From: Octopus vulgaris
Taxonomy: Eukaryota
Length of the DNA: 64,000 nt
Direction: 5' to 3'
NCBI GenBank assembly: GCA_951406725.2
Contig: OX597814.1
Span: 106,764,001-106,828,000, forward strand
Shown here in pieces: positions 20,310-59,870 of this stretch. Under the pieces are notes generated by a model. The model was given only the letters and a program-made list of their open reading frames with translations. It searched no databases and had not been told where the DNA came from. The stretch's first letter is position 1, and each line of letters starts with the position of its first letter. The translations under genes were made by a program, and so were the position numbers.

Positions 20310-20376
<67 letters not shown>

Positions 20377-20390
20377 GTAAAATATCAAGA

Positions 20391-21281
20391 ATGTCCAGAA
20401 CCTGGAAACGTGACGAACTGGCGTGGTTCCTGCGAGGATGGCAATGCGCTGACGGAGAAAATCCAAATAATATAATTACGGCTGCGCTGAAGAACAACGG
20501 ATACAAAAGGACGTCAGCTCAAATAGAGCGGAAGAAGCAAGAATTTATACGCTCCTACGCACTTGTCAGATCGCACATTAACACGCTGGATGCCATTTTT
20601 GACAGCGAAAAACGCGAACAAAGTAAAGATGGCAAGGATAGAGACGCGGGCGCTGATGAGGAGGGTCACCCCCACCTGGTAGACACCCAGGAAGAAAACT
20701 CCAGTGAGAGGCCTGCCCGTGAGATGAACCCAGGTGCGGATGCTCCTACCAGCACCAAAAGCCATGGACATGGAGATGAAAAAACCAAAAAAGGAAGAAA
20801 AACTGAAGCTAAAACTCAGACAAAGCCAAGGGGCAAGGCAGCCAGGGATAGAGGCAAACCTAACTATCCATATGCCAAAAAGGATGGAAACAAGCAGCGC
20901 ACACGGGTATGTAGGTTCTACCTGAAAGGTGCCTGCCGGCATGGAGAGGAAGGTGCAGGCTGCCGCTTTGCACATCCGGGACCCTGCCACAGAAACCAAC
21001 CACCGAAAGGAAATGGGATGGACCACGCATCACCTGCCCCAAAACGGAGGTACGCAGATGTGGTGCGTGCCACAAACCACCAACGTGTTGTTGAAAGGGC
21101 AGCTGCTGAGCAGGAATCTTTTTTGTGCATGGCACAAAAGATTGTACAGCAGCTAACCTGGCTCCATCAGGCTCAGGCTCGCAGATGGAACTGCCCACAG
21201 TTCACAAGACCGCCACAGCAGATGGACCCAGGGTGGACACCACCGGCAACAGCATACACCTCACCTCGATGCTCCTACTGA
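20391..21281 (+). CDS. LINE ORF1 protein (Myb/SANT-trihelix-like N-terminus, disordered linker, CCCH zinc finger)
   Basis: 296-aa ORF; W..DE...L....I..AL..NGY.RT..QI..K......Y at the N-terminus; CRFYLKGACRHGEEGAGCRFAHP finger. Confidence 0.85.
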   Translation: MSRTWKRDELAWFLRGWQCADGENPNNIITAALKNNGYKRTSAQIERKKQEFIRSYALVRSHINTLDAIFDSEKREQSKDGKDRDAGADEEGHPHLVDTQEENSSERPAREMNPGADAPTSTKSHGHGDEKTKKGRKTEAKTQTKPRGKAARDRGKPNYPYAKKDGNKQRTRVCRFYLKGACRHGEEGAGCRFAHPGPCHRNQPPKGNGMDHASPAPKRRYADVVRATNHQRVVERAAAEQESFLCMAQKIVQQLTWLHQAQARRWNCPQFTRPPQQMDPGWTPPATAYTSPRCSY

Positions 21282-24223
21282 ACATCAGAGGACTACTAAC
21301 ACACAATAACAGGACAAAAGTCCCGTTCCTGAGAGACTTTGTCGCATGCAATCAAGCCTTATGCATAGCACTCACAGAAACGCATCTGAAACCGGACATA
21401 GCAGATGCGGAATTACACATACCACAGTATGTTGTACTACGGACCGACAGGAAAGAAAGGAGTCATGGAGGAGTTGCTATGTACATCCGTGGGGACCTCA
21501 CACCCCAGGTCCTTTTGTCATACTCAAACTCGGTATGTGACACACTAATTGTACACATAAGGCAACTTGATGTAGTTGTGTGTGCTACATATCGCCCTCC
21601 AGATGCCCCAAGTCATATGGGCAAGTTTGAGGACTGCCTTTTAAAAATAGAAGTTCTAATCACATTAGAACAACACATAAGTGTACTTCTCATGGGAGAC
21701 TTCAATCTACCCAATGTCAGATGGCCCGAGGGCCTTTCTCTCCCAGGAATGACAAGATGTGAACGAGGACAGGCGAGGTCCCTCCTGAACCTCATCAACA
21801 CCCTGTACATGGAGCAAGTAATACTCCAACCAACCAGAGCAGGTAACACACTGGATCTCTGCTTCACAAATAATATGGATCTCATCCATAATGTGAAAGT
21901 GACACCGACACTACTCTCGGATCACAACATGGTAGAGCTGACCATGTACGGGCCAAAAGAGAGCACGGACATGCAGCCTACAAGAAACCCTCAGAATCTT
22001 TCCAGCTTGAACTTCAATAAGGCAAACTGGAAACAAATTGAGAAAGAGATCCTCAAACAAAACTGGCCTGAATGTCTCTCCTCGCCGGACATCGACATGA
22101 TACTTCAACAATTCATGTCTGTAATGCAAGCCATATGCTACCAATGTGTCCCAGAGAGAAAGGCCACTGTACACAAGAACAAAATCCCCAGAGAGAGGAA
22201 AACTTTAATGAGACGGCGTACAAAAATTTCAAATCGCCTAAACAAACAAATTGAAAGCAGTGAAAAGTCCCGCCTGAAAATAAAACTGTTGGAAATTGAA
22301 AATTGTCTGCAACTCTCCCATGAGAAGGAAAGAGCAGACAAAGAAGCCTGGGCTATAAACATAAAAACTAACCCCAGAGCTTTCTACAGGTATGCCAAAG
22401 AAACAGCTACGGTGCACTGTAGGATAGGGCCACTCCTTGAAAAGGATGGCACACTCACAGGAAAACCAATGAGGGTAAGCGAAATACTGAATGAACAATT
22501 CAAGAGTGTTTTCACTCCACCCCTTGGGCATTTCCAAATCAGCAATCCAACTGACTTCTTTACCACTGCAGATATAGAATCAGAGGCGGCGACGATAAAT
22601 TACATCGATATAACGGAAGACGATGTAATAAAGGCTATAGATGAAATGAAAACAGACTCAGCTATTGGCCCCGATGGATTCCCGGCAATCCTCCTAAAAG
22701 TATGTAAGAGAGTCCTAGCAAGACCACTGCAGTTCCTCTTTCAGAGCTTCCTTGCAGCTGACAAACTTCCAAGAAAACTGAAGGAAGGTAAAATATGCCC
22801 TATTCATAAAGGAGGTAGCAGAGCGGAGGCCAAGAACTACAGATCTATCTCTCTGACCTCACACATCAGCAAGGTCATGGAACGAATAGTCAGAAGGAAA
22901 TTAATCACCTTCCTTGAAGAAAATGACTTGCTGCCTGACACCCAACATGGTTTCCGACCAGGAAGAAGCTGCTTAACTCAGCTCCTGCAGCACTATGACT
23001 GGGTGCTGAAACAACTGCTCAACCACTCAAATGTGGAAGTCATATATGTCGACTTCGCAAAGGCCTTCGATAAAGTCGATCATGGAATGATATGTCACAA
23101 GCTGCGTGATCTTGGCATAGTTGGAAAACTAGGAGAATGGCTTCATGACTTTCTGAAGAATAGAAGTCAAGTGGTAGCAGCCAATGGGGCCACTTCCATT
23201 AGCACGCAAATAGTGAGCGGTGTTCCGCAGGGCACTGTTTTGGGACCACTACTGTTTATAATGGCCCTCTCAGACATGCCCTCAGCCACGCAGAGAGCCA
23301 CGATCACAAGTTATGCAGATGATACAAAAGTTTCACAGGCAATACAGAACCCTGAAGACACTAAGCACCTGCAATGTGAGCTGGACGAAATATACAAGTG
23401 GGCTGAAAAGAATAGCATGCAGTTCAATGCTGAAAAGTTTCAAGCTTTATACTATCATCATGCAAAACTGAATGCAATACCCAATGAATACACTGGACCC
23501 GGAGGGATTGCAATCCCAGAGGCACAATCAGTGCGTGACCTGGGTATTCACATGAGTGATGACGCGACCTTTCATGTACATGTTGCTAAACTGACAATGA
23601 AATGTAGACGGCTGGATGGATGGATTCTTAGAACCTTTAGAACAAGAGAACAAGAAACCATGATGGTCCTCTGGAAGACACTTGTCCTAAGCCACTTTGA
23701 CTATTGCTCTCAGCTATGGTCACCATCCAGTGTCAAGTTGATCACAGAACTTGAGGCGATCCAACGAAGCTACACGAAGAAGATAGCCTCTGTGCAGCAT
23801 ATGAGCTACTGGGAGAGACTCAAGAGATTAAAGCTCTATTCCCTGGAGCGTAGACGAGAAAAATATGCCATAATATATATCTGGAAGATCCTGGAAGGTC
23901 TTGTCCCAGACTTTGGCATCGAGAGTCACACAAATGCCAGAACCGGACGCCACTGCGTAGTACCAAGGACTCCAAATTTGCCATCAAGATGTAGGACAAG
24001 ATATTGTGATAGCCTGGGCTTCAGAGGCCCACGGCTCTTCAATATCCTCCCGAAGAACCTGAGGGACCTGCATGGTGTAGATGCGGATGTTTTTAAAGTA
24101 GGACTGGATCTCTTCCTGTCAGGTGTCCCGGATGAACCAACTTCACGGCAGGAGGTGCAGATGAGGGCAGCTGCATCGAACTCTCTCATGCATCAGATGG
24201 CGTTTGCTAAAAAGCATCCGTGA
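21269..24223 (+). CDS. LINE ORF2: AP-endonuclease + reverse transcriptase
   Basis: APE motifs NIRGL, LTETHL, GGVAMY, YRPP, GDFNLP, TLDL, SDH. RT motifs GPDG, NYRSISLTS, QHGFRPGRSC, DFAKAFDKVDH, GVPQGTVLGPLLF, YADD, RDLG. No stops; frame open from 21110; the ATG at 21269 just before the first APE motif is the inferred start. Confidence 0.96.
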   Translation: MLLLNIRGLLTHNNRTKVPFLRDFVACNQALCIALTETHLKPDIADAELHIPQYVVLRTDRKERSHGGVAMYIRGDLTPQVLLSYSNSVCDTLIVHIRQLDVVVCATYRPPDAPSHMGKFEDCLLKIEVLITLEQHISVLLMGDFNLPNVRWPEGLSLPGMTRCERGQARSLLNLINTLYMEQVILQPTRAGNTLDLCFTNNMDLIHNVKVTPTLLSDHNMVELTMYGPKESTDMQPTRNPQNLSSLNFNKANWKQIEKEILKQNWPECLSSPDIDMILQQFMSVMQAICYQCVPERKATVHKNKIPRERKTLMRRRTKISNRLNKQIESSEKSRLKIKLLEIENCLQLSHEKERADKEAWAINIKTNPRAFYRYAKETATVHCRIGPLLEKDGTLTGKPMRVSEILNEQFKSVFTPPLGHFQISNPTDFFTTADIESEAATINYIDITEDDVIKAIDEMKTDSAIGPDGFPAILLKVCKRVLARPLQFLFQSFLAADKLPRKLKEGKICPIHKGGSRAEAKNYRSISLTSHISKVMERIVRRKLITFLEENDLLPDTQHGFRPGRSCLTQLLQHYDWVLKQLLNHSNVEVIYVDFAKAFDKVDHGMICHKLRDLGIVGKLGEWLHDFLKNRSQVVAANGATSISTQIVSGVPQGTVLGPLLFIMALSDMPSATQRATITSYADDTKVSQAIQNPEDTKHLQCELDEIYKWAEKNSMQFNAEKFQALYYHHAKLNAIPNEYTGPGGIAIPEAQSVRDLGIHMSDDATFHVHVAKLTMKCRRLDGWILRTFRTREQETMMVLWKTLVLSHFDYCSQLWSPSSVKLITELEAIQRSYTKKIASVQHMSYWERLKRLKLYSLERRREKYAIIYIWKILEGLVPDFGIESHTNARTGRHCVVPRTPNLPSRCRTRYCDSLGFRGPRLFNILPKNLRDLHGVDADVFKVGLDLFLSGVPDEPTSRQEVQMRAAASNSLMHQMAFAKKHP

Positions 24224-25221: not shown

Positions 25222-25537
25222 GAGTGATATGGAATAAAGATTTTTGCCAACATAACATGGCAGTCGTGGTTTAGGAAGAATGTTGTTGTAATTTAGCCCC
25301 AGGAGACATTGTCTCCAGCTGGCTATACGACATGATCTGTGTCTTTATATTTTCGAACAAGGGGATCTAGTATCCCCACTCAGCTCAAAACAATATCTGT
25401 GAATCGCGATTTCCGGGTTATTTCCCTTCACATAGCCAGCTGGAGACGATGTCTCCTGGGGCTAAATTACAGCAACATTCGTCCTAAACCAGGACTGCCA
25501 TGTTACGTTGGCAAACAATCTTTACTCCAAATTACTG
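25222..25537. repeat. Inverted repeat, arms about 105 bp with about 105-bp spacer
   Basis: 25222-25326 is the reverse complement of 25432-25537. Confidence 0.9.
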
Positions 25538-25758
25538 TTGCTGAATATCTCTCGTTGTGAGATTTAAAAATAGTAATGGCTTATTCTGTTTCGTGAGAGT
25601 GCACTTCCTTATAGAGCTGGCAGTAGCAGCTGTGATTTGTGTTCGATGGAGGAGCTGGAAATTCTCAATTGCAAATCCAACTTAATTAATATGCATAAAA
25701 AATTTATTAAGCCATTGTTCACATTTTATAAAGCATTCTTCAATTTTCCACATAAAAA

Positions 25759-40004: not shown

Positions 40005-41717
40005 TATTATAAAAGGCAGATTTTATCTGCCTCCCTTTGTATCTTATAGAAATCTACAATATAGGATTTCTTCAATTACAATTTACCTAGCATTTTTATC
40101 TGCCTCCCTTTGTATCTTATAGAAATCTACAATATAGGATTTCTTCAATTACAATTTACCTAGCATTTTTAAGAGTAGAATGCATCGGGTTTTGCCAGGT
40201 CCACTTTTTAAAATTTCAACCCCAATTAAGCAAAATTTAGAGAAAACTCACATTGTGGTGTATGCGTCAAATGCTTCTCTTAGTGTGGTCTACAGCACAC
40301 GCACACGCACACACACAGTGTGCAACGAATAAAGTGAAAGTAATTCACTGTGTGTGTGTTGACAAGTAGACAGTAGAATGCGATGGCGATGGCGATGGCG
40401 ATGTAATATTTGTTTCAGTCTATGACGCTGATAGATACATGAGTAAAATGTATGGGACGCTAAGAGATAAGAGTGAGTGAAAATGTTCTTGGAAGAGAGT
40501 AAATAGCGAGAGAGTGATTTGAGGAAGACTTTACATTAAATAACCGTAGTGGCTTGTCAAATGAAGAGGAGTGAAAGGGTACTGGAGGAAATAGGGTGAG
40601 TGAGGAAGATGGCCCCTAGCAACCACACCTTTTAAGATAGGGATTTCTAAGGTAGCCCACGAGCATCGTCACCTCATTCTACATGTCCCTGTAAATTTTG
40701 GAGCAAATCGAACGGGATAAAGTTATCTCTAAGAAACAGAAAGATCGCCCAAAAGTGTATATAGATATTTAAATGTATTTATATATTCATCTATACACAC
40801 ATGTATGTATAATGTGCGTGTATATATTTCCATAACCATTCAATCCATACAAAGTTTTTTAGGACGAAAATATTTATATATAAAAGAAAGGTTGTGTGTC
40901 TGTCTACTCCGATTTAGATTCCTAACTACTCCCACATTTTGCGATGCAGTTTAACCAAAACCGGGTATCTTATAGTCGTGATTCATATCAAGCCCTTCTG
41001 GGTATTAACGCGCGTCTACGATGAGTCTATGATTTTACAAATAATTTACCATCATTTTTTTCCATTTTAACGCATATTTTTTTTAATAAAGGGAAGTAAC
41101 TCTCAAACTTCACACCAATATGCGTGCTCATATGCGACGTAATATCACATCAGCAGCATTTCCTCACACTCTCCTTGCACTTGGCGAAGGCAAAATACCA
41201 GGGGATGAAAATGGTAATATTGCCATCGATTCCATTTGTAACATTGTTAAGACGCCTTCTGATCTCAGAGATGCAGTGTTCCCAGATCTACAAGCTAATT
41301 ATCAGAATATGGATTGGATTGGCAAAAAGGCTATACTGGCCCCGAGGAATAAAACTGTTCACCATATTAATGATGAAATGCTAAAACTCATTCCTGGGGA
41401 AGTCTGTGTATATCAGTCTATCGATACAACTCCTGACCCAGAGGACGTCATCAACTATCCAATAGAGGTACTCAATTCCTTTGAGCACCCCGGACTACCA
41501 CCACACTTTCTCAAACTTAAAGTTGGTGCCCCTATAATGCTCATCAGAAATTTGGTTCCCCCAAAACAATGCAATGGCACACGTTTGATCGTTAAGTCCT
41601 TATCTCCCACCGTAAACTTATATCAATATTTGCCTGAATAATCATCATAATTCAGTGCAATCATTAACAGTACTTTCAAGCAATTCAGCCCCGAGCAACG
41701 CCGGGCAATTCTTCTAG
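40002..41717 (+). mobile_element. Composite Helitron inserted in (AT)n
   Basis: 5' TC, 3' hairpin CCCGAGCAACGCCGGG + CTAG, A|T target, internal about 75-bp duplication (40020-40170), second Helitron 5' end at about 40873. Confidence 0.85.
41105..41615 (+). pseudogene. PIF1-family (Helitron RepHel) helicase fragment
   Basis: NMRAH..LLALGEG..KAILAPRN..V..IN..YQSID..YPIEVLNS...GLPPHFLKLKVGAPIMLIRNL....CNGTRLIV. Confidence 0.92.
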
Positions 41718-50176: not shown

Positions 50177-50250
<74 letters not shown>

Positions 50251-50319
50251 CAATAATAAATCTCTGAACCAGATGTAAACAGTAACTGCACGACAATGTA
50301 AGGTATACTAGCCATCTTA

Positions 50320-50775
50320 ATATGGCTAACCACTAAGGGTGGGTGTTACTGTAGCTTGTAGCCCCAGGAGATCATCGTCTCCAGCTGGCTTTAGGCACAC
50401 TTTTTGTGCCTTTATGGTATTTGCAAAGGGAGGTCATCCCTCCCTCGTCAACCCAGGTGACACGCACGGACTGCAGTTTCTAGGTGTTTACCTGTCTTGC
50501 TTGCATAGTTTTTCGAGATCAGTGACAAAAAGTTACTGAAAAAACGATATAAAGATTTGCATTGGGACTCCCTTCATCGACAACCGGTGACTGCCGTACG
50601 CTGAAGACAGGCAAAAACCTAGAAACTGCAGTCCGTGCGTGTCACCTAGGTTGACGAGGGAGGGATGACCTCCCTTTGCAAATACCATAAGGGCACAGAA
50701 ACTGTGCCTAAAGCCAGCTGGAGACGATGATCTCCAGGGGCTACAAGCTACAGTAACACCCACCCTTAGTGGTTA

Positions 50776-50782
<7 letters not shown>
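50320..50782. repeat. Inverted repeat, arms about 180 bp, containing a hammerhead
   Basis: 50320-50498 is the reverse complement of 50604-50782; the right end runs into (TA)n. Confidence 0.95.
50595..50639 (+). ncRNA. Minimal type-I hammerhead ribozyme
   Basis: CGTACG-CTGAAGA-C AGG caaaaa CCT A-GAAAC-TGCA-GTC-CGTGCG: 6-bp stem I, palindromic stem III ACTGCAGT, GUC cleavage triplet. Confidence 0.82.
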
Positions 50783-51000: not shown

Positions 51001-51563
51001 CCCTTGCCTCATCTACTCCGCGTTCCGACGGTAAGGACAAGATGCGACTTCGTTAAAACAATCCTTCCCGCAAAGCAAACCAAACAAAATTTGGGATTTT
51101 CTGCGGAGGGTGAAAGTGGCAACAAAAACAGGTCAGCGAGAACAAAACAGTAAAAACAAACGGTGAGGGCTGTTAAGCCAAGACGATGTGAAGTGGTGCA
51201 CGCTTGGTAAAATGAGCTTTGAGAAGAGACAGATAAAAGCACGTCTTGTCATTATAAAGGATGTGGAAGAATGAGAGAACGACTATTCTCTCTTTCTCCC
51301 TCTTCCTTCCTAAAGACAAGACGTGCTTTTATCTGTCTCTTCTCAAAGCTTGTTTTTCCTAGCGTGCACCACTTCACATCATCTTGGCTTAACAGCCCTC
51401 ATCGTTTGTTTTTACTGTTTTGTTCTTACTGTTCTGTTTTTGTTGCCACTTTCACCCTCCGCAGAAAATCCCAAATTTTGTTTGGTTTGCTTTGCGGGAA
51501 GGATTGTTTTAACGAAGTCGAATCTTGTCCTTACCTTCGAAACGCAGAGTAGATGAGGCAGGG
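51001..51563. repeat. Inverted repeat, arms about 250 bp
   Basis: 51001-51250 is the reverse complement of 51315-51563; a related single copy lies at about 61690-62000. Confidence 0.95.
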
Positions 51564-56899: not shown

Positions 56900-59870
56900 A
56901 TGCCCAAACAATACCAACGGGATGACCATATCGGAATGTGCACTACGAAAGAAATTCGACGCCAGGGCACCAGAAAACAATACCACCACCACAACCACCA
57001 GCAACAATTTCACTCCTGGAACATACGGCGCAGTACGGCTAGATACGGATGAAATGCATGTCTTAGAGTTACCACCGAAATTCGCAACATATAAGAAGGT
57101 CAGAAAACTTAATTGTCTGAGATTGAAAAAGCATTCTTAAAAATAAGATGGCGGTTAGGAAAATACAACAACAACAACAACGACGTATGAAAACAAAACA
57201 GCAACAACAGCAATGTTAGTGACAACAACAATAGTGACAATAACAACAACGATAACCACAACATCCCCCACACAAACAACTATAACGACAACAACAACCA
57301 CGCAAACATACAGAACCAAAACAACACTAGCAACAACAACAACAATGATAATAACATGAACAACAATAACAATAACAGCAATGACAACTACAACACCCCA
57401 TACACAGACAACAATACCAACCTCAACAGGAACATGAGAGAGTAGAAAAACTTCTCTTCGACGCACAGATGGGGATGTGGCGCAACATACTCCAGCCCAG
57501 GAAACGGACTGCACGAAATTTCCAAACATTCAACAACGATGTTCCCACGCTGCACGAGTTACGAAAAACACCATAAACCCTACGTAAACCCTGTTATGGG
57601 ACCCCTCCCCAGTCGGCCAATTTGCGGAGCAAATATCTCCAGCAATTACAGGCTATCCTACTTCCTCTCACCGGTGTTACGACCACTCATTGAATTGTCC
57701 CCGGATGCCTGTGTGAGCACGGAGGACCTGCTCAATAGAATCAGTAGTTGCAACCACACCAACGGTTGTGTAGTGGGTAGTATGGATGTGGCTTCACTCT
57801 ACCCATTTATAGACATTAGATTTTGCTGCGGTAAAAAGCATAGGGATGAACTATAAAAGTGTGGTAGAGTCCCCCGAAGTCAACACGAGGGAACTGGGCT
57901 TCCACTTTACACTAAGCTATGACCGTAACTACCTAGACAACCATGACCTAAGTAGATTCTGCTCCACCAGGTCACAGAGAGGAAGGCCACCCACCATCAC
58001 CTCGGCAGTGAAGAAAAACACCACAGAGCGCTGGAGTGGCTAGACCATACCCACCCAGGACCCTCAGAACAGCAATCAGGTGAAAAGAATGATTGCGCAT
58101 GCTATAGGACCACCTTGAAGAACCACATAGTGAAGTTTGACAGAAAACTATATATGCAGTTTCAAGGAGCAGCCATTGGTGTTGGTGTGGCTGGAGATGT
58201 GGCTGACCTCTTCATGACCTGGTGGGACAGAAAACTTAAACAATCCTTAGCTGAACAATCCACAACTGTTTTGCTTTACCGTAGGCATGTAGATAACATC
58301 AATATTCTTGTTAGGGACAAACCCTAGTAACTGTAGTGTAGAAATCGAGAGGAGCATAATGGGGAGCATTAAGCACGTAGCTAACTCCATCCACCAAAGT
58401 ATCAAGGCAACTATAGATTACCCCACTAGGCACTCAAACAACAGACTCCCCGTACTTGATACTGAACTTTGATTAGAGACTGTAAACAACAGTTCCTCCA
58501 CTCCTATTACATGAAACCCATAATGACTAAATATGTTGTTCACATGACCTCAGCTTTGTCACACAGTACGAAAATCAATATACTGATAGCAGACTTAGCT
58601 AGGATAACGAATAACGTGTCCCCCTATGCGAACCCTATGAAACAAGGAAACATGTACAGAACTTCATGCAATTCTCTGGATATGACCAAAAAGATAGGAT
58701 TCGCGTATACAAATGAGCTAGAAAGAAGTTAGCATTATATGTAATGAAGCCAGTGGTACCCGCCTTAGATACAGAGATAAAGACTGGAATAGTATACAGA
58801 GAGTTTATGACAAAGCAAGCAAAGTAAACACGTGGTACAGGGCTGACAAATATCAAGCAGTGATGTTTGTAGAGGCTTACATCCCATGGGAGATTAACCC
58901 GTAGATCTAGGAAAGCTCTGAAGGAGACCAAACTCAACATTAAGATCGTTGAAAAGCCAGGGAGCTCCATTAGATCGAAGTTATGTAGGACGTACCCCTT
59001 CGAAAATACCACATGCACCGATGAGAACTGCGCAGTATGTAATATTAACCCCAACATTAGCTGTAGAAGTAGATATGTGGTCTACAGCATAAAGTGCATA
59101 GAGAGTGCTTGTAAAGACAAGAATGCAGCATACATTGGAGAGACATCTAGTAGTATTGCGGAAAGATTAAATGAAAAACACTTGAGGCAATATGATGATA
59201 AAAAACAGTCCTCGTATTCTCTACAAACATGCCAAAGACCAACATGGAGGTACACTAGACCGACTTGACATTCGCATTTTAGCCAAGCGCCGGAAGGACC
59301 CATCACTCTAGATCTATCGAAAGACAACCAGAAATGTGAGACTTTTGAGAATATTCTCCTGATGAAAAGCTCATTGCTTTTGGATCTCCTTAATGGATTT
59401 TACATTAACGAAGTGTGGCGAAGTCTTTTGAAACGATTGTAGAGATGGATTTCGAATGAACTCTTTTCTGGTTGTTGCTTTGTCCTTTATTTATATTTAT
59501 ATTATTTCAGTTTCATTGCCTTAAACTTCCTGTTGCTTTTAATATGCATTAATTTAATCCATATATTTTTCTTCATTCGACTTCACTCGTGTTACCCTTT
59601 TAGCTTTTATCACCTTTTGTATTCGTATATATGTGTAAATTTTATGCTATTGGGCTTTACCATTGGGTGCCCTGATGTATTTATGTTCGATAGGGAATGT
59701 TATAAAGTTGTTTTTACCAATTAGAGCGTTTATTCATTATACCTTTCAATTTATTTTTCCTTTCGTTTCAGGGTTACCTGAGCACTTCCATCTGCAGACC
59801 TTTTTTTACTCTTCGTTTAACGAAATTACTTTTCGGTTTAACAAAATTATAAAATTATCTTCATATTCAT
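56900..59870 (+). mobile_element. Degenerate near-full-length Penelope-like element (RT, GIY-YIG, 3' pLTR)
   Basis: LELPPKFA, PSRPICGA, GSMDVASLYPFID, QFQGAAIGVGVAGDVADLFMTWWD, LYRRHVDNI, RLPVLD, HSYYMKP, VVYSIKCIESACKDKNAAYIGETSSSIAERLNE; many frameshifts; ACA-rich segment at 57165-57440. Confidence 0.9.
59355..59445 (+). ncRNA. Hammerhead ribozyme in the PLE 3' pLTR
   Basis: TCTC-CTGATGA-AAAG..CTTTT-GAAAC-GATT-GTA-GAGA, directly downstream of the GIY-YIG region. Confidence 0.78.

Follow-up and report, generated by a model that had tools for sequence, protein, structure and literature searches.

Insertions of Penelope-like elements (PLEs) with an inverted pLTR and a tail are described, in the available text of two reports (PMC8557442; PMC3846280), as combining a head-to-head, 5'-truncated copy with partial tandems, a tail at one end, a target site duplication (TSD) of ~9-12 bp, a hammerhead in the repeat and a bias towards AT-rich or (TA)n targets. 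The octopus repeat family analyzed here resembles them in each of these features. As far as the text of those reports goes, it differs from them in having no ORF, in consisting as a whole of a 354-nt unit, in the length of its tail (~48 nt as opposed to 30-40 nt) and in the very high frequency of inversion, 120/171 loci, a figure inflated by ascertainment.

Metazoan non-LTR retrozymes provide a second point of comparison. The portions of text available on them (PMC7229834; bioRxiv 10.64898/2026.07.22.740005) report a non-coding tandem unit of ~350 nt with a type I hammerhead, a strongly self-paired fold, dispersed monomers and dimers and long TSDs, all of which have counterparts in the octopus family. 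The preprint, in the part available, derives these retrozymes from PLEs (10.64898/2026.07.22.740005). Unlike retrozymes, the octopus family consists mostly of dispersed, truncated and inverted copies, as opposed to long arrays. Head-to-head insertions with two fixed ends are not described in the retrozyme text examined (PMC7229834; 10.64898/2026.07.22.740005).

A third system is the Anolis PLE Poseidon PAc, which has been studied in vitro (PMC11167929). According to the available sections of that report, the PLE protein, a predicted dimer, cleaves and extends both strands and starts reverse transcription at two internal sites, one on either side of the tail; hammerhead cleavage is dispensable. 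These properties mirror the model that we propose below for the octopus element. The same sections describe PAc as autonomous and its start site as the same for the top and the bottom strand, with no strand preference, whereas the two octopus arms almost always use different sites.

The insertion and its repeat family

The window, a 64-kb stretch of Octopus vulgaris DNA, contains a palindrome that we interpret, with a probability of roughly 0.7, as one insertion of a Penelope-like element that is non-autonomous, carries a hammerhead and has a 354-nt tandem unit, the palindrome itself having probably arisen by dual-strand priming and cDNA joining (Table 1). The structure is largely ordinary: it is a common PLE-type inverted insertion, among many hundreds of family copies. 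The paired arms named in the original prediction (50320-50498 and 50604-50782) are real, with 172/179 positions pairing (96%), and the left arm does stop, as had been stated, at AAGACAGG inside CTG/AAGA, where it overlaps the start of the right arm by 2 nt (TT). Those bounds hold for the paired part and misplace the limits of the element, since the left arm runs 72 nt further, to 50248. Moreover, the segment at 50499-50603, previously taken for a spacer, turned out to be the 5' third of the right-hand monomer and is continuous through an intact hammerhead. The right arm ends at the (TA)n tract, ~24 nt short of the usual end of the element. Because the insertion sits in a (TA)n microsatellite, the TSD of the window copy is unreadable; with that TSD and its own end A lost, the class of this copy rests on the family. 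The anatomy of the family bears out the earlier framing of the locus as a PLE insertion, in which an inverted, 5'-truncated copy lies beside a longer one.

Table 1. Features of the insertion in window coordinates (monomer position m1 is window position 50497; the repeat unit is 354 nt)
Feature	Position	Strand	Description
Whole insertion	50248-50782	.	Non-coding Penelope-like (retrozyme-type) repeat, 354 nt, inserted head-to-head in a (TA)n tract
Left arm	50248-50498	-	Inverted 5'-truncated copy, m110 through m354 and on to m6; its outer end is end B, the fixed end with the tail
Left-arm part outside the earlier coordinates	50248-50319	-	Last 24 nt before end A and the ~48-nt tail
Right arm	50497-50782	+	m1-m288; the usual end A (m311-313) is missing at (TA)n
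Inversion junction m110/m1	50497-50498	.	2-nt microhomology (TT)
Type I hammerhead with upper stem I	50587-50645	+	Predicted, from sequence, descriptor scan and covariation in 120 copies
Hammerhead upper stem I	50587-50591/50641-50645	+	
Hammerhead stem I	50595-50600/50634-50639	+	
Hammerhead core CUGAAGA	50601-50607	+	
Hammerhead C10.1-A11.1 mismatch	50608/50621	+	In place of G-C
Hammerhead GAAA	50622-50625	+	
Hammerhead GUC	ends 50633	+	Predicted cut after 50633
Junction hot zone m175-199	50669-50693	+	36-60 nt 3' of the cut, over the TTTGCAAA palindrome, at the 3' base of a predicted long rod

One 30-mer of the element has 1,232 exact matches in the genome, and a similarity search of the same genome (2.8 Gb, 227 contigs) returned 2,361 first-look candidates; of the 40 candidates that were scored, many aligned only to query positions 178-463. 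The flanks of matched loci identified the repeat as a 354-nt unit in partial tandems. Loci were sampled through exact 3'-end patterns (30-33-mers), which were chosen to avoid selection on the position of the junction. Three sources were used: the first 100 of the 1,232 pattern matches, all 84 matches of the pattern of the window copy's subfamily, and, for the pattern of a second subfamily, the first 100 of its 170 matches, which contributed 18 new places. We removed 11 overlapping fetches and 17 loci known only from the similarity search, the window copy included. Of the 171 loci in the final sample, 120 were head-to-head inversions and the remaining 51 were not. Young and two-armed loci are favoured by the patterns, and 120/171 therefore overstates the inversion rate. 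Three locus pairs with common flanks represent duplications, and 118 inversions are left without them. The 120 inversions hold 111 distinct junctions, and 26/240 arms are longer than one monomer. Tandem copies (for example, loci L010, L014 and L019) and single-arm copies occur as well. One further locus (L033, C1:11167006-11170035) carries seven tandem units of ~119 bp, composed of the 3' end of the element and (TA)n, on one arm of its inversion, and we read this array as a local amplification after insertion.

Across the family, copies show the hallmarks of Penelope-like elements: the 3' ends are fixed and may carry a tail, 5' truncation varies, and there are partial tandem and inverted structures with the tail on one end. 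Family-wide, TSDs of variable sequence, in keeping with the ~8-14 bp expected of such elements, occur at AT-rich or microsatellite targets, although at the window copy the TSD is unreadable. The unit also has the form of a retrozyme, that is, a non-coding, tandem-permuted unit of 150-450 nt with a type I hammerhead (here 354 nt, with covariation), and the circular monomer is predicted to be strongly self-paired (MFE z=-6.7 versus 60 shuffles). Judged by its sequence, the element agrees with metazoan non-LTR retrozymes as regards its size, its tandem unit, its predicted fold and its hammerhead.

Outer ends, target sites and joining of the arms

Family copies have their 3' ends in two clusters, end A (m305-316) and end B (m1-8), ~48 nt apart, a distance that corresponds to the PLE 'tail', and their 5' ends range over m1-m353. 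In inversions, the two ends are used almost strictly one of each: 82 of the 84 classifiable inversions were A+B, 2 were A+A and none was B+B, the other 36 of the 120 having at least one unclassed end. With wider classes, the counts were 93 A+B, 3 A+A and 1 B+B. This rule puts numbers on a remark already in print, namely that the tail frequently sits at one end only. Near-strict one-of-each use of start sites in a retrozyme-like family was not found in a literature search that covered few subscription journals and no supplements, and it may be in print.

The A+B loci touch (TA)n or (CA)n in 41/82 cases. In 36 of the 41 non-microsatellite A+B loci, direct repeats of 8 nt or more flank the insertion, compared with 4.4% of shuffled pairs. 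The TSDs have a median length of 12 nt and a variable sequence, the targets are AT-rich, and in several single-arm copies the TSD immediately abuts the element on either side. Junctions without an insert overlapped by at least 2 nt in 65/84 cases, as opposed to 34% of 597 simulated ones, and inserts of at least 3 nt were present at 31/120 junctions, as opposed to 0.7% in the simulation. By eye, several of these inserts resemble copies of nearby element sequence.

We favour dual priming because the fixed outer ends ~48 nt apart are used one per arm, because TSDs of ~12 bp occur with microhomology or short-insert junctions, and because some arms exceed one monomer and read through the ribozyme. 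In this mechanism, a trans-acting PLE RT/GIY-YIG protein, possibly a dimer, would nick both target strands ~11-12 nt apart. The cDNA primed by one target 3' end would begin at site A (m312) and that primed by the other at site B (m5 of the following unit), with an uncleaved multimeric or circular RNA as the putative template. Both cDNAs would then stop short at differing positions and pair over a few complementary bases, followed by repair. The scheme is related to L1 twin-priming, in which the second target strand likewise primes an inverted cDNA and both junction microhomology and a TSD are seen. In twin-priming each cDNA is made from a separate part of the RNA, whereas both octopus arms begin close to one and the same 3' end and cover overlapping sequence, with a palindrome as the result.

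In keeping with the model, the genome holds young PLE families with RT and GIY-YIG ORFs. Other observations count against dual priming. No autonomous partner was found among 75 fetched PLE loci (L219-L293), which came from two young PLE families and a GIY-YIG family search, with the best 150 candidates per search scored; these loci share no sequence with the monomer except for adjoining family copies. In vitro, the start site of the Anolis PLE did not differ by strand (PMC11167929). In addition, most arm pairs share a haplotype (64/85, compared with 20.9 in shuffled pairs), as fold-back copying also predicts.

Fold-back or self-priming holds that one strand (of cDNA or of antisense RNA) folds over onto itself where it meets a short inverted match and is extended on its own sequence, after which an endonuclease trims the ends at A and B. 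It has been put forward for the rotifer Penelope in the available text of PMC3846280. We regard it as unlikely for the octopus family, even though it would account for junction microhomology, for the predominance of single-haplotype arm pairs (56/99 pairs lack any shared-site difference) and for junctions that recur at palindromes (for example, 181/181 and 195/178) in loci with unrelated flanks. However, the spacer is not consistently on one arm type: in 81 loci the arm reaching further 5' was the A arm in 52 and the B arm in 22, with 7 ties. A cDNA primed at A would also have no template for the tail. Furthermore, the arms differ from each other at 78/1337 polymorphic sites, against 17-50 expected if they were identical at birth, and 7/99 arm pairs differ at no fewer than three subfamily sites present in both arms, a result not foreseen if one arm is a copy of the other. 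This discordant minority could stem from later gene conversion.

As to the dual-priming machinery itself, the one-of-each rule (82/84) is possibly the genomic trace of PLE RT acting as an asymmetric dimer, with both target strands primed from two different fixed sites on uncut retrozyme RNA, a tentative proposal that we hold at slightly under even odds. If true, it would make the PLE tail and the inverted pLTR the outcome of one event, and it would link animal retrozymes to the PLE machinery through the anatomy of their insertions.

The hammerhead and the inversion breakpoint

Scanning both strands of the window with a hammerhead descriptor gave 50595-50639 (+) as the sole match. The original prediction of a complete hammerhead at this place is confirmed as far as the type I motif goes and has to be qualified in two respects, namely the C10.1-A11.1 mismatch and the Rfam search, which gave 0 hammerhead matches at the gathering threshold and none among 68 hits to E=10. 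We do not count the Rfam result against the motif because the family copies covary. The window copy matches the core C3-U4-G5-A6-N7-G8-A9, G12-A13-A14, stems I-III and the NUH site, with a stem II of 3 bp and a stem III of 2 bp that carries a palindromic loop. In the 120 copies that cover the ribozyme, positions 3 and 8 covary (C3/G8 in 93, U3/A8 in 16), one pair of stem II is swapped (A-U in 97, G-C in 17) and so is one pair of upper stem I (U-A in 91, C-G in 16), and N7 is unconstrained. Compensatory changes thus keep the predicted hammerhead structure; the copies are related, hence these changes represent few independent events.

The pair G10.1-C11.1 is called highly conserved in the available part of PMC4209133, and natural mismatches at this pair are known according to that of PMC3088659. 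The octopus family departs from it, with C-A in the window copy and in 94/120 copies and G-C in 15; not one of the 120 copies combines G10.1-C11.1 with the C3-U4-G8 core, so none is fully canonical. The haplotypes of this region (m107-m127) include C10.1-A11.1 with C3-G8 (59/120), the same combination with an additional U4C change (24/120) and U3-A8 with G10.1-C11.1 (13/120). For PLE hammerheads, the U3-A8 swap and a short palindromic helix III that requires a dimer have been described in the text available from PMC4209133, and on that basis a single copy whose stem III has 2 bp would be expected to cleave weakly. The family may retain only damped hammerheads (0/120 fully canonical), so that templates remain uncut. 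If the locus were read through, the palindrome would form dsRNA; in the predicted read-through RNA (-384 kcal/mol), the left arm pairs with the hammerhead core and masks it.

The original prediction also held that the hammerhead fold, or its self-cleavage, halts the RT and thereby fixes the point of inversion, and it proposed plotting the breakpoints on the monomer, with random scatter as the outcome that would speak against the idea. We found that the junctions scatter. Junction ends were counted against positions at risk, leaving out ends 3' of m260 in the first unit on account of ascertainment. The core (m107-139) received 18/176 junction ends versus 16.7 expected (p=0.7), the wider zone m101-145 received 21/176 versus 22.7, CUGANGA+-2 received 5/176 versus 5.0 and the cleavage site 2/176 versus 4.0. 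After collapsing repeated junction pairs (111 junctions, 175 ends), the core held 17 ends versus 17.2 expected. Moreover, 97 of the 128 arms that reach the ribozyme (m145) read through it, past m100, and the right arm of the window copy itself spans it. Fifteen further joints from other runs scatter as well, with 2/30 ends in the core, both at m123 (converted by hand). A separate candidate, 5' ends defined by cleavage, was rejected, as there is no pile-up at m137-143 in inverted copies (2/176) or in single copies (1/48).

Two points can be cited for a breakpoint set by the ribozyme. One is the window copy, the left arm of which ends in the core at m110; the other is an excess at m120-127, on the 3' side of stem II, with 10/191 ends versus 4.5 expected (uncorrected p=0.015), in a window that was picked post hoc and lies outside the five best windows of the scan. 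This excess falls to 8/175 versus 4.2 (p=0.076) after collapsing. We conclude that the ribozyme does not fix the breakpoint and that any remaining effect is small (less than ~2-fold); the proposed model is highly improbable, and the junction of the window copy lies in the hammerhead core by chance, as ~1 end in 10 does.

A scan of all windows identified m175-199 as the sole enriched zone, with 43/191 ends versus 22.1 expected (scan P=0.002) and, after collapsing, 37/175 versus 20.2 (P=0.015), an enrichment of ~2-fold that lies outside the ribozyme. This zone is not the window copy's own junction. It looks tied to position and not to length, because both arm types show a high rate there. A general rule that junctions form where the cDNA stops in stems finds no support, the pairing probability at junction ends being 0.61-0.62 against a background of 0.65.

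Finally, a classical MITE with long TIRs, an inversion after insertion or an assembly artefact is very hard to credit: the long, near-perfect inverted arms adjoin TA and, among the contigs of four runs, none spans the whole stretch, but the 120 inversions have 111 distinct junctions, tandem and single-arm copies occur, the arms of the window copy differ at 7/179 sites, so that neither is an assembler's mirror of the other, and the identical TIRs, fixed interior and fixed short TSD of a MITE are excluded by varying junctions, unequal ends and variable TSDs of ~12 bp.

Related elements and what the family means

The genome and the window hold several other elements of interest. One young, autonomous PLE family (L220-L248) has open frames that reach ~780 aa and, ~630 nt past the stop codon, a hammerhead-like motif with U3-A8; its 3' end carries (TA)n, and it includes several head-to-head pairs a few kb apart. 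In the window, broken PLE-like ORF pieces with RT-like motifs recognized by eye lie at 57446-59268 (+), with a weak GIY-YIG match (E=0.0011) that is below the Pfam cut-off; a BLAST search of the element against the window found no sequence shared between these pieces and the retrozyme. A second, older head-to-head element, of a sister family, is located at ~25233-25570. Its arms are ~93% alike, it has distant similarity to m217-m354 and a tail-like stretch is present on one arm only. Just 220 bp from the insertion, a large palindrome (51002-51563; 278-nt arms, 92%, 6-nt gap) consists of an internal segment, folded back on itself, of a longer high-copy repeat that is unrelated to the element and gave 3,388 first-look candidates; among the 18 other copies examined, none is palindromic. 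The window also contains an apparently young LINE (20373-24223, +) with two long open frames of 302 aa and 1,037 aa, the latter with endonuclease and RT domains, and a Pif1-helicase fragment (41090-41641, +), possibly derived from a Helitron.

The head-to-head PLE-type structure was already known, and the idea of a breakpoint set by the ribozyme is refuted by its own test. With its many short, young insertions, the family offers a count-level view of PLE integration, in which two fixed start sites, one per strand, a stagger of ~12 bp and joins by microhomology can be followed together. It is thereby relevant to the origin of the inverted repeats and tails of PLEs, and it supports the proposal that animal retrozymes are passengers of PLEs.
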